Of a DNA stretch of 64,000 nucleotides, positions 41,557 through 62,594 are shown piece after piece. The first letter of the stretch is position 1. Every line of letters begins with the position of its first letter. The DNA is from an uncultured Verrucomicrobiae bacterium. GTDB lineage: Bacteria > Verrucomicrobiota > Verrucomicrobiia > Chthoniobacterales > JAATET01. Under the pieces are notes generated by a model. It saw only the letters and a program-made list of their open reading frames with translations. It did no database searches and had not been told where the DNA came from. The position numbers and the translations under genes are program-made. Location: contig CAVXHK010000003.1 in assembly GCA_963761705.1 (NCBI GenBank), positions 430,794 through 494,793 of the forward strand, in the 5' to 3' direction.

Positions 41557-43899
41557 CTAGCGGCGGATGACCCGGAGCTTGAGAACCTTGGACCGGTTGC
41601 CGGCAGCGTCGAAGGCGCGGATCTTGACGAGGGTCGTGCGCTTGTCGGGATCTGGACGAACGACGGCGCGCCAGCGGGGGCCGGGTCCTCGGGTGGGCTT
41701 GAAGCCGCCGCGTTGGCCGCGAATTTTGAACTCGACGCGGGCGATGGAGACGTTGTCGGTGGCCTGACCGCGGAAGACGATGCGGCGGCGGGTGGACTCG
41801 ACGCGGCGGCGGCCTTGGACGCGGACGCGCGGTCGCGTGAGGTCGGGCGCGATGGCGGGAGGGGTGGTGGGTGGAATGAAGAAGACGTAGGCGGCACCGG
41901 AGTCACTCGCAGTGTTGTCGTTGATGGCGAGGGGATTATTGATGCCGGCGGCGTTGCTGTCTTCCCGGGTGGCTCCGATGATTGCGGTGTCGCCCGAGAT
42001 CGCGACCGAGCCGCCGAACTCGTCATCAGGATCGGCGTTGGCGGATTTAAGGTAGGCTCGTTGGAACCAGGTGGTGCCGGAGCGGGAGAAAAGGTAAGCC
42101 GCGCCGGACTCGCCGGTCGTGTTGTCGGCTTGCTCACCGTCGACGCCGGTGGCGATGGAGTCCTCGAAGATCGCCCCGACGACGAGATTCGCTCCCGAAA
42201 GCGCAACGGATCGGCCGAATTGGTCGCTGAGCTCGGCGTTGGAGGCTTTGAGGTAAGTTTCGGGAAACCACGTCGTGCCGCTTCGGACGAAGGCGTAGGC
42301 CGCGCCGGCATCGAAGGTGAGGTTGCCGGTCTGGTCGCCGTTGATGCCGGTTGCGCCGCTGTCTTCGAACGGGGCGCCGACGACGAGACTGTCTCCCGAG
42401 ATGGCGAGCGCCGTGCCGAATGAGTCTGCCCCATCGGTGTTTGTCGACTTGGCGTAGGCTTGCTGGGTCCACGTGGTGCCCGAGCGAATGAAGACGTAAG
42501 CCGCTCCGGATCCGGCGCTGGCGTTGTCGGTCTGGTCGCCGCCGATGCCGGTCGCGCTGCTGTCTTCGAGGGGGGCGCCCACGGCGACGGTGTCGCCGGA
42601 GATGGAAACGGCGGTGCCGAAGCGGTCGCCAGCGTCGGAGTTCGACGCTTTGAGGTAGGCTTGCTGACTCCAGAGGTTACCCACCCGAGCGAACACGTAA
42701 GCGGCTCCCGCGCTTGGCGCAGCGCTATTGAGTTGGTTGCCGTTGATGAAATTCGAGTCGCTGTCTTCGAACCGGGCACCGACGACGATGGTGTCGCCCG
42801 AAATGGCGACCGCGCTGCCAAACTCATCGTTGGCGTCGGAGTTCAGCGCCTTGAGGTAGGCTTGCTGGGACCAGGCGGCTCCGGTGCGGACGAAGACGTA
42901 GGCGGCTCCGGCGGCCGAGGCGGCGCTGTTGTTCTGATTGCCGTTGACCCCGTTGGAGTCGCTGTCCTCGAGGTTTGCGCCGACGACGGCGGTGTCGCCG
43001 GAGATCGCGACCGCCGCGCCGAAGTTGTCGCTGTCGTCGGTGTTGGAGGCTTTGAGGTAGGCCTGCTGGATCCAGGTCGTGCCGCTGCGGACAAAGACGT
43101 AGGCCGCACCGGCGGAGTTGAGGCCGTTGTTCGTCTGGTCGCCGCCGATGCCTTCGGCGGTGCTTTCCTCGCCGGTGGCTCCGACGATGGCGGTGTCGCC
43201 GGAGATCGCGACCGCGCCGCCGAAGCGGTCGCCCGCGTCGGTGTTCGAAGCTTTGAAGAAGGCCTGCTGGGCGACGGGGTCGATCGTGACCGGGTAGCGG
43301 GCGTCACGGTCGTCGACTTCGATGGCAAAGCCTTTGGCACGGGGGACAAAGCGAGTGGGCAGAGTGCGCCCGTCGGCGTCCCAGGCCAGGAGACCGTCGT
43401 AAGTGAGAATGGTCGCGCCGGCTGGGTTGGTGAACTGGACGACGTCGGGGGTGACCGTCGGGGCGAGGCTGCCGCGGACGGCGAGGCTGAGAAGCAACGG
43501 ATCGCCGTCACTGGCGGCGGGGCGTTTGGTGAGGGTCCAACCCTGCTGGAGGCCGTGGGGGTGATTGACGAACCACTCGGAGAGCGCGGGTGAGCGGCGA
43601 ATGGCGAGGCGGTTTTCGTCGGCGGTCGCCGAGTTGGCGGGATCGCGCTTGGCGAGTTCAAGCCCCCAGGTCCAGTCGGCGCCGTCGGGGGTGGCGAGGA
43701 AGCCGCGGTCGTCGAAGGCGATTGTCCAACCCTGGGAGGGATTGCGGGCGACGTGGGTGCCGTCTGGTTGGACGGTGATCCGGTTTCTCCAGGCATCGTG
43801 GGCGGCTCGGATGCCGGTCCAGTCGGAGTTGGCGATGGGGGCACCGTGCGCGCCGGTGAGAGTGGCGGCGATGGTGAGAGCGAGGAGTAACGATTTCAT
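41557..43899 (-). CDS. Secreted FG-GAP (integrin-like) seven-repeat protein with Arg-rich C-terminal domain
   Basis: Signal peptide; YPVTIDP; seven ~67-aa repeats QQAYLKASN..D.FG.AVAISGDT.VVGA...GAAYVF; basic ~95-aa C-terminal domain. Confidence 0.88.
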   Translation of the reverse strand: MKSLLLALTIAATLTGAHGAPIANSDWTGIRAAHDAWRNRITVQPDGTHVARNPSQGWTIAFDDRGFLATPDGADWTWGLELAKRDPANSATADENRLAIRRSPALSEWFVNHPHGLQQGWTLTKRPAASDGDPLLLSLAVRGSLAPTVTPDVVQFTNPAGATILTYDGLLAWDADGRTLPTRFVPRAKGFAIEVDDRDARYPVTIDPVAQQAFFKASNTDAGDRFGGAVAISGDTAIVGATGEESTAEGIGGDQTNNGLNSAGAAYVFVRSGTTWIQQAYLKASNTDDSDNFGAAVAISGDTAVVGANLEDSDSNGVNGNQNNSAASAAGAAYVFVRTGAAWSQQAYLKALNSDANDEFGSAVAISGDTIVVGARFEDSDSNFINGNQLNSAAPSAGAAYVFARVGNLWSQQAYLKASNSDAGDRFGTAVSISGDTVAVGAPLEDSSATGIGGDQTDNASAGSGAAYVFIRSGTTWTQQAYAKSTNTDGADSFGTALAISGDSLVVGAPFEDSGATGINGDQTGNLTFDAGAAYAFVRSGTTWFPETYLKASNAELSDQFGRSVALSGANLVVGAIFEDSIATGVDGEQADNTTGESGAAYLFSRSGTTWFQRAYLKSANADPDDEFGGSVAISGDTAIIGATREDSNAAGINNPLAINDNTASDSGAAYVFFIPPTTPPAIAPDLTRPRVRVQGRRRVESTRRRIVFRGQATDNVSIARVEFKIRGQRGGFKPTRGPGPRWRAVVRPDPDKRTTLVKIRAFDAAGNRSKVLKLRVIRR

Positions 43900-43982
43900 G
43901 GACCAGTGAGATTTGCCGGAGTGACCCGCTAACGACCGCGACGGCCGGCGGGAACTGGGAGGTATCTCCGGGAGTTTTTTTG

Positions 43983-44011
43983 ATTGTCGCGCTCGAGAAG
44001 CTTCGGTTCAA
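43983..44011 (-). promoter_or_regulatory. Sigma-70-like promoter for the FG-GAP gene
   Basis: Minus strand TTGAAC-N17-GACAAT with an AT-rich upstream tract. Confidence 0.4.
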
Positions 44012-44390
44012 GGGAAACTTCGTAACCAGATAAGTATCATAACATATTAAACGGCGAAACTCCGCGACCGAGCCTCGCAAAGGCCCGGTCGCGCACGCTG
44101 ACGCGATGGTGGACGTGACGAGACCTCGGCGGGAAAAGTCTGCGGGTGTGACTGCGAAGGCCGCCAAGCGGGCAGGACAAGGTCGCCGAGCGGAAGGCGC
44201 GCTTGGTGCCCGCGGAGGGCTGGGAAACACGTGGGCGCGGGTTCGGCTGACGACCCGGCGAACGACCGTGCGAGGAATCGTAAGCTGGGAATGGACGCTG
44301 GCTCTTTCCGGTCACAGAGGGCGGTCGAAAAGGGATGTTCCAAGGCGACTTCGTGATCGGATGAGATTGGTAAGAAAACCCGGGGTAGAC

Positions 44391-44840
44391 TCAATCGCGT
44401 GACCGTCGCCGCATCCGAACGCGGAGGGGAGCGGACTCGGTGCCGGCAAGATCGGTGGCGGTGACGACAACGAAACTGACGCCGCGGGCGGCGCGGATCC
44501 GCCGACTCCAAGCGGATCCGCTGACGCTGGCGGGAATGGCGCGACCGCGGGTGAGGACGGTGACCGAGCTGAGGGGAAGCAGGCTGGCGGCGACGCCGCG
44601 CAATCGGACGCGGGCGCGGGTGAGGCGGCGGAGTTTGCCCGGCTTCCGAACGGAAACGACGGGTTGGCCGTTGGGCAGGATGGTGGCGGTGATGGAATCG
44701 AGGACGAGCGGGGGATCGCCGAAGCCCCGGGTGATCTCGAACTCGAGGACGTGGGAGGTGGCCGTCGCGAGGGCATCGAAGGTCTGGGTATTCCACGGAT
44801 TGCCGTCGATCCCCGAGACGAACAGCTCCGGCGTTTCCAA
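44391..44840 (-). pseudogene. Short or 5'-truncated ORF ending in the same Arg-rich C-terminal domain
   Basis: PVVSVRKPGKLRRLTRARVRLRGVA...W.RRIR...V.ATDLAGTES.PLRVRMRRR. No signal peptide; TTG start only 27 nt from the divergent pssA start. Confidence 0.55.
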
Positions 44841-44867
44841 CGCGGTCCGGTTCTGTATTCTGCCGCG

Positions 44868-60602: not shown

Positions 60603-62594
60603 AAACTGGACTGACTTTCGGGGAGCCGCTTTGGCTCTGGGGGTTGATGTTGGTGCCGTTGCTGGCGGCGTTTTTCTGGCGTGCCCAGGTGAAACGGAGC
60701 GGGGCTCATCGAGCGGATCGTGGCGCCGAGGCTGCGGCAGCAATTGGCTTCGGGCGTGAGTCTTCGGATGCGTTGGATCCGGACGGGGCTGATTCTTCTG
60801 GCGATCGGGTTGGCGGTGGTGGCGATGGCGAAACCACGGATGGGTTACGTGCAGCGGGAGATCAAGACGAAGGGGCGGGACGTCCTCCTGGCCATCGATA
60901 CCTCGCGGAGCATGCTGGCCACGGACGTGACACCGACGCGCCTGGCGAGGGCGAAATTGGTTTCGCAGGATCTGATGCTGTTGCTGCGCGGCGATCGGCT
61001 CGGGGTGATTGCGTTCGCGGGGTCGGCGTTTTTACAGGCTCCGCTGACGTTGGATGACAACGCGGTGCTGACGACGTTGGACGAGTTGGACACGGACGTG
61101 ATCCCGAGGGGCGGGTCGAATCTGGCGGCGGCGATCCAGACGGCGATCGATGCTTTCGGAAAGGCCGAGGGGGTGATGCGGGCGCTGGTGATTCTCACGG
61201 ATGGTGAGGAACTCGACGCGGACGGGGTGGCGGCGGCGAAGCGGGCTGGAGAGGAGGGAATCCGGATTTTCACGATTGGGCTGGGTTCGGCGGAGGGAGC
61301 GCTGATTCCGATTCGGACGGCGGACGGGCGGCAGGGTTACGTTTTGGACTCGGCGGGGCAACCGGTGAAGTCGAGTTTGGACGCGGCTCGGCTCGGCGAG
61401 ATCGCGGAAGTGACCGGGGGCTTTTACACGCAGCTCACGCCGGACGTCGCGCGGGAGGTTTTTACGAAAGGGATCGAACCGCTGGAGGAGCAGGAAACGG
61501 GTTTGATGTCGTCGAGGCTACCCATTGAGCAATACGAGTGGCCGCTGGGGGGCGCGCTGATCTGCCTGACGCTGTGGATCTTGCTGGGCGAGGGGCGCTG
61601 GGCGGCGGGCCGGACGGGGGCGCGGGTGAAGGCGACCGCTCTGGCAATGGCGTTGGTGTCGGTGCAGGGAAGCGTGGTGGCGAGCGGGATGGAGAGTTAT
61701 CGGGCGGGGGATTACGCGGGGGCGATGGCAGCGTTCGAGGCGGAAGCTGAGCGGCTGCCGGAGTCAGAGAAGTTGAAGTTCAACGCCGGAGCGTCGGCTT
61801 ATCAGGCGGGGGACTACGCGAAGGCGGTGGATTTATTTACGGATGCTCTCTTGTCCGACGACGACGGTTTGCGGGAGAACGTGGAATATAATCTGGGCAA
61901 CTCCTTGGCGCGCCGGGGCGAGGCGGCGAAGTCGGAGGAGGGGAAGAAGGCGGATTGGACGGACGCGATTGATCACTACACCGCGGCGCTGGACCTCGAC
62001 CCCGGAAATACGTTGGCGGAGGAGAACCGTGAGATCGTGCGGAAGATGCTCGAGGACCTGAACCAGAAGCAGGAAGAGGAAAAAAAGCAGGAGCAGGACA
62101 AACAAGACGACGAGAAGCAGGACGATCAAGAAGGCGAGGATCAAAAGGAGAACGATCAGAAACGGGATGAAGAGAACGAAGACGAGGGGAAGCCGGACGA
62201 GCAAGACGGTGAGAAGGGGGATGAGCAGGACGATCAGGAGGGCGAATCGGGAGATGAACAATCCGACGACGAGAAGCCGCAGGATTCGGAGGGGGACGAG
62301 CAGGACCAGGATGAGTCAAACGACGGTGAAAGTTCGGGGGAACAGGATCAGCCGGGTGCGGAGCCGACGCCGACCCCCGGGGACCCGAAGGAAGGAGATC
62401 TGAAGTCCCAAGGTGGGGACGAAGAGCCGGAAGAAGGCGAGCAAGCCGGGGAGGCCGAAGGGGCTGAGGAGGTGCCTGACGGCGAGATGTCGGAGGCGCA
62501 GGCTCGCAGCCTGTTGCGATCCATGCAGGGAGACGAGGAGCGGGTGCAAATGATGGAACGTCAGGATGAACGCGGCGTGCGGCGGGATTGGTAG
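60584..62594 (+). pseudogene. batB: BatB-like VWA + TPR (BatC-like) fusion with acidic tail; +1 frameshift at the G run 60701-60704
   Basis: The N-terminal segment LTFGEPLWLWGL is in a different frame from the VWA body (DTSRSM, LTDGE). Removing one G restores KRSGLIERIVAPRL. Confidence 0.8.

Follow-up and report, generated by a model that had tools for sequence, protein, structure and literature searches.

The 64,000-nucleotide stretch analysed here (the window, G000:C3:430794-494793) lies in the 3.5-Mb, 4-contig verrucomicrobial source genome G000, a member of the genus designated g1; coordinates without a contig prefix are window positions. The window encodes on its minus strand an FG-GAP_2 protein that ends in a strongly basic immunoglobulin (Ig)-like domain, and next to it an open reading frame (ORF), named ORF2, that ends in a second copy of the same domain. 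This C-terminal domain (CTD) is about 90 amino acids long, is connected to its passenger through a proline-rich linker and belongs to a family that occupies, once per protein, the extreme end of 34 ORFs of the genome. It is a derived, polycationic member of the Big_7/Glucodextran_B Ig-like superfamily and its fold is not new. We give an even chance to the reading that the CTD would be a modular, enzyme-free electrostatic tail retaining exported proteins on an anionic surface, and not a stereospecific secretion signal.

A preliminary description of this DNA had noticed the likeness of the two tails, proposed a motif pattern common to them and seen in the shared domain a candidate sorting or anchoring signal. 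Both ORFs are present as described, the first with its proline linker, acidic passenger and basic tail. The FG-GAP protein has seven FG-GAP_2 repeats (Pfam, E 5.5e-75); the last 290 residues of its passenger part have a net charge of −20 and an isoelectric point (pI) of 4.1, and the 95 residues of its CTD a net charge of +23 and a pI of 12. In a pairwise comparison the two window tails are weakly alike (28% identity over 71 amino acids by BLASTP, with an E-value of 0.009 that holds for a single comparison). A hidden Markov model (HMM) of the two tails was searched against the genome translated in six frames (36,805 stop-to-stop ORFs of at least 50 amino acids). Its first round (E ≤ 1e-3) identified 20 ORFs, and the iteration converged through 32 and then 34, 34 and 34 domains in 34 ORFs, among which the window protein scores E 1.1e-23 (envelope aa 689-780). 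The shared C-terminal domain is real despite the weak pairwise likeness of the two window tails, and the motif pattern proposed earlier agrees with the family consensus. All 34 envelopes lie no more than 23 residues from the stop codon and 19 reach the last residue; internal or tandem copies were found in none of the 34 ORFs. Two of the 34 copies are incomplete, one being a piece of 51 aa and the other lacking an internal part. The GC content at third codon positions of the CTD genes is not different from that of reference genes.

The structural model predicted by AlphaFold2 from A1, the alignment of 32 CTDs from G000, is an eight-strand beta-sandwich (mean predicted local distance difference test score, pLDDT, of 92.3; predicted template modelling score of 0.81). 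A structural search against representatives placed domain B of glucodextranase first (1ulv_A 685-773; Z 11.4, root-mean-square deviation 2.6, 88 aligned residues, matched with VIA-align). Foldseek against the PDB gave the SrpA adhesin as top match (E 8.9e-5) and, just below it, glucodextranase 1ug9 (template modelling score 0.71), the Ig-like domain of sulfite oxidase and FN3-like modules of cellulases. Weak matches to a SiiE-type BIg domain (E 1.8e-4) and to glucodextranase (E 0.0034) were obtained in a profile search of the PDB sequences. The motifs of the CTDs point the same way: D-x3-P-x-V at the N-terminal start, a G-x-A-x-D loop, a tryptophan and A-x-D-x-x-G-N, of which the first, second and last form what we take to be the usual skeleton of the Big_7/Glucodextran_B superfamily. 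Pfam matches on the window ORFs are sub-threshold (Big_7, E 0.0016, for the FG-GAP protein; Glucodextran_B, E 0.0046, for ORF2), the window CTD scoring 19.5-20.3 bits against Big_7, below the cut-off of 24.1. Run over the genome at E ≤ 0.01, the Big_7 model gave eight matches, two of them over the cut-off; all eight fall inside CTDs, so the genome has no ordinary Big_7 domains. Glucodextran_B exceeds its cut-off in one CTD of G000 (L030, 32.6 bits) and in one of G010, a genome of the related genus g4 (36.9 bits).

NCBIfam gave nothing relevant on the two window ORFs and, on the 32 CTDs (E ≤ 1), an OmpL47-type domain in 10 of the 32 (best E 8e-7), in matches that stay below the cut-off of 40 bits for the member shown. 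Neither Pfam nor NCBIfam has a model that captures the CTD subfamily. Models of the CTD known from type IX secretion systems (T9SS; TIGR04183/PF18962 type A, and type B) found no match in the Pfam scan of 32 ORFs (E ≤ 0.01) or in the NCBIfam scan of the 32 CTDs (E ≤ 1), and the pre-peptidase C-terminal domain (PPC, PF04151) none in 32 CTD proteins of G000 and 26 of G010. Among 1.84 billion representative proteins the CTD profile matched 27,205 at E ≤ 1e-3; the best 150 of these are long proteins with 7-46 matched stretches each, and the five of them that were scanned are all Glucodextran_B/Big_7 arrays (family E 1e-37 to 7e-84). These generic tandem arrays and the match to glucodextranase domain B show that neither the fold nor the family of the domain was undescribed. 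The preliminary description had also named a plain match to a generic Ig-like family lacking positional bias as an observation that would speak against its proposal: the match is there at the level of the superfamily, but the subfamily is strictly terminal. Word-indexed protein searches gave little information: one with the window CTD retrieved only the CTD itself (1 of 128 candidates), and one with the CTD alignment gave 42 matches, mostly generic Big_7/Big_13 proteins. The neighbours of the CTD in the Atlas are Big_7 clusters scoring 0.85-0.89, below 0.9, and serve as leads only. Full-text literature searches, judged at the level of abstracts, yielded no description of such a domain.

The net charge of the 34 CTDs ranges from +9 to +25 (mean +19), with a pI of about 12 and a lysine plus arginine content of 28%. 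The 300 residues ahead of them are mostly acidic (mean pI about 6.3 overall, many at 4.1-4.8), and some passengers are neutral or basic. The background was taken from 115 of the 150 best global matches, which supplied 809 ordinary superfamily copies (more than 60 profile positions, E ≤ 1e-5), a set biased toward multi-repeat proteins. Their mean net charge is −3.8 (standard deviation 3.7), with 0.9% of the copies at +9 or above; those located no more than 25 aa from the end of the protein make up 1.6%. In an alignment of 52 sequences (32 from G000 and 20 from relatives; 88 profile columns), basic residues make up at least 70% in 10 columns and 30-70% in 23 more. Because basic and hydrophobic columns alternate along the strands, the whole exposed surface of the CTD, rather than one patch, is probably cationic, with arginine or lysine at nearly all strand positions that face the solvent; acidic residues are confined to two conserved loops. 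The ratio of arginine to lysine shifts from 2.4 in g1 to 1.7 in g2 and 0.73 in g4, and the net charge is nevertheless held at +10 to +24 across the three genera. The conserved feature is bulk positive charge, not residue identity, and arginine and lysine exchange freely. The protein ends with RR in 18 of the 34 ORFs of G000 compared with 3 of 20 sampled in g2 and g4, hence a terminal RR is dispensable.

The Pfam scan covered 32 of the 34 CTD ORFs (the window protein was scanned apart and the 51-aa fragment omitted) and found passengers that are mutually unrelated. NHL propellers (one of them with the internally deleted CTD) and DUF7453 are present in four ORFs each, glucose/sorbosone dehydrogenase and matrixin M10 in two each, and FG-GAP_2 in one ORF in addition to the window protein. 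DUF4394, a cyclophilin (peptidyl-prolyl isomerase, PPIase), a reprolysin-type metalloprotease, a GDSL lipase, pAdhesive_15 and a BOF domain were found once each. No passenger family was assigned in 13 of the 32, one of which (C1:1554906-1555274) is composed of a signal peptide and the CTD only. The same arrangement exists in G010 (L153), and such proteins argue for an autonomous function of the CTD. Signal-peptide-like starts were searched with a crude rule, which asked for a basic n-region and, after it, 10-17 hydrophobic residues without charge, in the first 130 codons. One was found in 25 of the 34 CTD ORFs; among 1604 predicted genes 250 aa or longer, 571 have one. Two more CTD ORFs have such a start beyond the first 130 codons; among the seven that lack it are fragments and genes with frameshifts. 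PEP-CTERM was looked for with a regular expression, which matched 35 times in the genome (24 canonical by eye) and not once in the 34 CTD ORFs. Two exosortase (EpsH) genes are present (C1:313893-314681 and C1:1835402-1836232).

Within the genome, the paralogues of CTD passengers (E ≤ 1e-10) are 15 CTD proteins, no PEP-CTERM protein and three others, two of which are frameshift pieces of CTD genes. There are 22 pairs of CTDs at least 55% identical in G000, and 18 of them join different passenger families (FG-GAP, NHL, DUF7453 and unknown), which shows that the module has moved between genes. The largest CTD cluster, with LuxR regulators (G000:C1:1050171-1068548), is also present in the g2 genome G006 (C207:15963-26684) at a level of identity unusually high for two genera: the two copies of the LuxR regulator share 80% identity, and the likeness between the DUF7453 CTD tails is about 90% by eye. 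In other genomes of g1 this regulator has no match (G001, G002) or weak ones at E 1e-20 to 1e-24 (G003-G005). A recent transfer of the cluster between g1 and g2 is possible.

The phyletic range was mapped with A1 against whole genomes, the samples being made of species representatives. The 40 relatives searched comprise 16 genomes of the same family and 24 from 15 other families of the order. At E ≤ 1e-5, 14 of the 16 match, with 17-81 matches each: 5/5 in g1, 1/1 in g2, 8/8 in g4 (7/7 without the unpublished genome G016) and 0/2 in g3, whose two genomes are 97% and 81% complete. One of the 24 from the other families matched, with a single match at 4.3e-8. In a sample of 300 genomes of the order, with 16 candidates scored per genome, 11 of the 284 outside the family have 1-3 weak matches at E ≤ 1e-8 (best 1.3e-14). 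At E ≤ 1e-10, five of 400 genomes sampled from the phylum match (best 3.7e-13); the single one with many matches has several per ORF, i.e., ordinary tandem arrays. The 20 top-listed matches taken from G006 (g2) and from G010, G011, G012, G014 and G015 (g4) all end within 14 aa of the stop codon and have charges of +11 to +24. A full census of G010 gave 30 CTD matches, all 30 within 23 aa of the stop; a frameshift splits one copy, and the full-length ones have charges of +9 to +25. The 26 ORFs of G010 whose passengers were scanned include two each of NHL, FG-GAP_2, DUF5122 propellers and DUF4394, and one each of a GDSL lipase, a subtilase with P-domain, DUF7453, a beta-lactamase-family protein, a sulfatase, a matrixin and two glycoside hydrolases, GH32 and GH43, the latter with the carbohydrate-binding module CBM6/35; 11 have no family. 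As support for its proposal, the preliminary description had named a domain present in many copies, always C-terminal, carried by signal-peptide proteins and exclusive of PEP-CTERM. The counts bear this out, those on signal peptides (found on most of the proteins) and on PEP-CTERM being from G000.

Homologues of the FG-GAP_2 passenger are widespread, and by tblastn most of them stop near residue 673-690, i.e., without the CTD, and other modules stand at the C-terminus of such homologues. L046, titled Chthoniobacterales MAG (metagenome-assembled genome), is the only public contig found through the passenger that also bears the CTD. The passenger was matched in none of five CTD-less genomes, in a search that had no positive control. 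In other Verrucomicrobiota (L039, L051, L054, L065, L087, L105) the homologues end in a recurrent module of about 70 aa (...FYRAVQP) and in Planctomycetota (L037, L038, L058, L103) in a different one (...LAITVLVP); both modules are possible additional C-terminal tags specific to their lineages. In a Verrucomicrobiales MAG, an FG-GAP protein has a different, basic, beta-sandwich-like C-terminal tail (L036:5044-5355), with a net charge of +21 over 124 aa. This type of tail has 19 matches in its own genome (G692), some of them two per ORF, and may represent a convergent use of cationic tails.

A gene set co-occurring with the CTD, which the preliminary description had named as further support, was not found among the five candidates tested (SprA, secretins, the small double-secretin L136, exosortase and the LuxR neighbour of the CTD cluster), the control for the first of them having failed: the SprA model TIGR04189 matches neither G000 nor any of 14 control genomes and is uninformative. 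Secretin-domain matches number 4-6 in each of the 17 genomes of the family, the CTD-less g3 included. L136 has a full-length or C-terminal-part match in 8 of the 15 CTD-bearing genomes searched, its own included. Exosortase is present in 37 of 41 genomes, again with g3, and the LuxR neighbour in 5 of the 16 other family genomes. The surroundings of the largest CTD cluster (C1:1.05-1.08 Mb) contain LuxR/GerE regulators and housekeeping genes. A scan of the genome for acidic partners was swamped by false ORFs of GC-rich DNA. L136 itself (G000:C1:1689950-1691491) has two weak secretin-like regions and a C-terminal motif of about 65 aa (...GYVDLRGFPPGTEVKCPYSGKLFLAP), which is also found on separate ORFs of 140-170 aa in nearly all of the 41 relatives.

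The electrostatic tail is favoured because the charge is conserved while arginine and lysine exchange, the terminal RR is dispensable, proteins made of the tag alone exist and none of the candidate machinery co-varies with the CTD; this last result fits a partner that needs no special enzyme. A passenger with the CTD would be exported by Sec and do its work after export, its CTD sticking non-covalently, by charge, to a polyanion. This would most likely be the cell's own lipopolysaccharide (LPS) or acidic exopolysaccharide, a partner for which no dedicated sorting enzyme would be necessary. Exoenzymes and adhesin-like proteins would in this manner be kept at the surface, or in the matrix, of their producer, and the cargo is indeed typical of surface or extracellular proteins, which supports retention. 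The strict C-terminal position may reflect export, since a block of about +20 close to the signal peptide would hinder Sec translocation; the positive-inside rule is the basis of this idea. Several points weigh against an electrostatic tail. The proposed function is read from composition and architecture only. Strict, single-copy C-terminal placement is a hallmark of true sorting signals (T9SS CTD, PEP-CTERM, LPXTG), and known non-covalent modules that bind the cell wall or LPS are often tandem or N-terminal. The sharp lineage restriction (three of four genera in one family) would also be predicted for a dedicated partner, for which a search of five candidates leaves room. Furthermore, cyclophilin, soluble glucose dehydrogenase and BOF are passenger families that we assume to be periplasmic in model bacteria, and a surface location is consequently not certain.

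The same placement, in 34 of 34, 20 of 20 and 30 of 30 copies, is one argument that the CTD might be a true secretion or sorting signal similar to the T9SS CTD, read by a lineage-specific outer-membrane or periplasmic machine that would move the cargo across or onto the outer membrane, perhaps cleave the CTD and attach the cargo covalently. Such a machine would agree with a cargo of tens of proteins per genome, diverse in their passengers and bearing signal peptides, with the shuffling of the module between passengers, its mutual exclusion with PEP-CTERM and its sharp phyletic range, and with a size and beta-sandwich fold like those of the T9SS CTD. We nonetheless consider it unlikely: secretins, L136, exosortase and the LuxR neighbour do not co-vary with the CTD, regulators and housekeeping genes are what adjoins the CTD genes, T9SS CTD models matched none of the CTDs, conservation concerns the charge and not specific residues (the terminal RR being lost in g4), and a signal peptide followed by the CTD only makes little sense for a pure export signal. 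In a further and more novel reading, to which we attach the same low likelihood, the CTD would act as an address label for C-terminal sorting or attachment by a helix-less route that has so far escaped recognition, in which Sec-exported cargo would be docked onto a lineage-specific anionic surface glycan, or handed to it by a partner enzyme or outer-membrane protein. In function such a route would parallel the pairs formed by the T9SS CTD with anionic LPS (A-LPS) and by PEP-CTERM with exosortase, but it would rely on charge recognition of a folded Big_7-type domain. Of the two functions offered in the preliminary description, the evidence leans toward the binding of anionic surface polymers and away from a secretion route, both remaining proposals; its sorting or anchoring interpretation is thus partly supported.

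The charge evidence would serve equally well for a domain that targets enzymes to polyanions outside the cell (soil minerals, humic matter, extracellular DNA or acidic polysaccharides) in the manner of a carbohydrate-binding module. The GH32, GH43 with CBM6/35, sulfatase, subtilase and lipase of G010 act on external polymers, and the solved relatives in the superfamily are accessory domains of glycoside hydrolases. No single substrate would suit passengers as diverse as a PPIase, beta-propellers and a BOF protein, such binding modules normally occur at either end of a protein and in tandem, and ubiquitous external polyanions leave the narrow phyletic range unexplained, all of which makes this targeting quite unlikely. 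A CTD with no targeting role at all, acting as a passive spacer, as a folding or solubility aid that balances acidic passengers, or resulting from compositional drift in GC-rich DNA, is in our view very unlikely. It is true that passengers are acidic, that the CTD roughly cancels their charge, and that C-terminal Ig-like accessory domains with no known role are common. Drift does not fit genes whose passengers are acidic, nor the g4 CTDs, which keep their charge with lysine instead of arginine; there is no passenger to balance in the proteins made of signal peptide and CTD only; neutral or basic passengers carry the domain too; and 17-81 copies per genome, together with shuffling, argue for a selected modular function. 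False ORFs rich in arginine and proline abound in this genome and ORF2 is not an intact gene, so we also weighed whether the tails are artefacts of wrong-frame or read-through translation in GC-rich DNA. They are in frame with passengers confirmed by Pfam, conserved as protein in three genera with exchange of arginine and lysine, and their predicted fold (pLDDT 92) matches a solved domain with Z 11.4; an artefact is extremely improbable.

The coordinates of the two CTD-bearing ORFs of the window are given in Table 1.

Table 1. Features of the FG-GAP_2 protein gene and of ORF2 (window positions).
Feature	Position	Strand	Basis
FG-GAP_2 protein gene, 780 aa with basic CTD	41557..43899	-	ORF list and Pfam
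Stop codon of the FG-GAP_2 protein gene	41557-41559	-	
Sec-type signal peptide, about aa 1-19, MKSLLLALTIAATLTGAHG with A following the putative cleavage site	43843..43899	-	Translation and rule-based scan; cleavage site inferred
FG-GAP_2 repeat (beta-propeller) region, about aa 200-675	41875..43302	-	Pfam, extent of tblastn match
Pro/Thr-rich linker PPTTPPAIAP, aa 676-685	41845..41874	-	Read from sequence
Basic C-terminal Ig-like domain (CTD), aa 686-780, ends ...LRVIRR	41560..41844	-	HMM, charge, AlphaFold2 model
ORF2, 5'-truncated relic of a signal peptide + beta-sandwich (DUF642-like by eye) + CTD gene	44391..44840	-	Translation, comparison with paralogue
CTD copy of ORF2, net +18, ends ...RMRRRSRD	44394..44666	-	HMM, charge
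What is left of the passenger domain of ORF2, its last ~46 aa, NPWNTQTFDALATATSHVLEFEI...	44709..44846	-	BLASTP to paralogue

ORF2 had been presented as a neighbouring, unrelated ORF. Its CTD copy is confirmed (HMM envelope aa 389-476 of a 479-aa open frame, E 8.5e-15), but an intact gene it is not: it has no signal peptide and no convincing start, and its upstream open frame overlaps a gene of the plus strand with a CDP-alcohol-phosphatidyltransferase-type motif as read from the translation. The sole paralogue of ORF2 (C1:1061763-1062712) encodes a signal peptide, a beta-sandwich domain that resembles DUF642 by eye, and a CTD; it is itself damaged, its CTD being broken by a deletion and a frameshift. 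ORF2 is 65% identical to the paralogue over 46 aa (C1:1061763-1062635; BLASTP, E 7e-14). Their homology begins only at about position 44846, 46 aa ahead of the linker, with none upstream, and ORF2 is therefore a 5'-truncated relic that has lost its 5' two-thirds. No orthologue of it was found in the five same-genus genomes at E ≤ 1e-6, in a search lacking a positive control. The relic state of ORF2 and this result indicate that the CTD family undergoes birth and death.

Over the window as a whole (1-64000), most 2-kb bins have a strongly positive GC skew (0.17-0.35), whatever the strand of the genes. The only stretch where it goes down to about 0-0.1 is 20-34 kb, in which the GC content drops as well, to 0.52-0.57. 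The low-GC segment 25150-34335 encodes an 823-aa PATR (autotransporter-associated repeat) protein with a canonical PEP-CTERM end (C3:455937-458411), an 895-aa ORF to which Pfam assigns no family, and a protein of 281 aa bearing a prepilin-type N-methylation motif. A VWA and TPR protein, BatB/BatC-like by its domains, is encoded at 60720-62594 (plus strand); its C-terminal region is extremely acidic and of low complexity (net −36 in 90 aa).

C-terminal tags define repertoires of exported proteins, and their recognition led to sortase, exosortase, rhombosortase and the T9SS. In Verrucomicrobia of an uncultivated type from soil and sediment, a widespread Ig-like repeat has become a strictly terminal, shuffled tag with a charge of about +20. 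An electrostatic anchor, if this is what the CTD is, would be a cheap, enzyme-free way for diderm bacteria to hold exoenzymes at their surface, and a ready-made polycationic module for display or immobilisation. A partner of the CTD, should there be one, would amount to a new sorting system. Whichever holds, annotators could use a profile of the subfamily to pick out the surface and secreted proteins of this lineage, for which Pfam and NCBIfam have at present no label.

Compared with known systems, the CTD shares its fold and motif skeleton with Big_7 (PF17957) and Glucodextran_B (PF09136), whose ordinary members are mildly acidic, internal and tandem, whereas the CTD is single, terminal and charged from +9 to +25. 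Like the T9SS CTD, it is a folded beta-sandwich (about 80-100 aa) that closes tens of Sec-exported proteins with unrelated passengers, and it is restricted to a lineage; T9SS cargo ends on anionic LPS, according to PMC8545088 and PMC13086638. The two differ in that the CTD has no sequence match to T9SS CTD models. To our knowledge, the T9SS does not occur outside Bacteroidota-related phyla and extreme positive charge is not a described feature of its CTD. PEP-CTERM likewise tags the C-terminus of many secreted proteins in this genome, with comparable cargo, but consists of a short motif, a transmembrane helix and a basic tail, and is cleaved by exosortase; the CTD is a folded domain with neither hydrophobic stretch nor helix, and the distribution of exosortase does not follow it. 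GW modules (Listeria InlB/Ami, which bind lipoteichoic acid) and SLH domains are charge-based, non-covalent surface anchors that act without sortase. Basic modules that hold secreted proteins on anionic polymers of the envelope correspond to the mechanism proposed for the CTD, yet they have other folds, belong to Gram-positive envelopes and are usually tandem, while the CTD is a single Ig-like copy in a diderm verrucomicrobium. Within a known domain family the CTD is thus a new variant that has diverged strongly, and its use resembles that of the known C-terminal tags.

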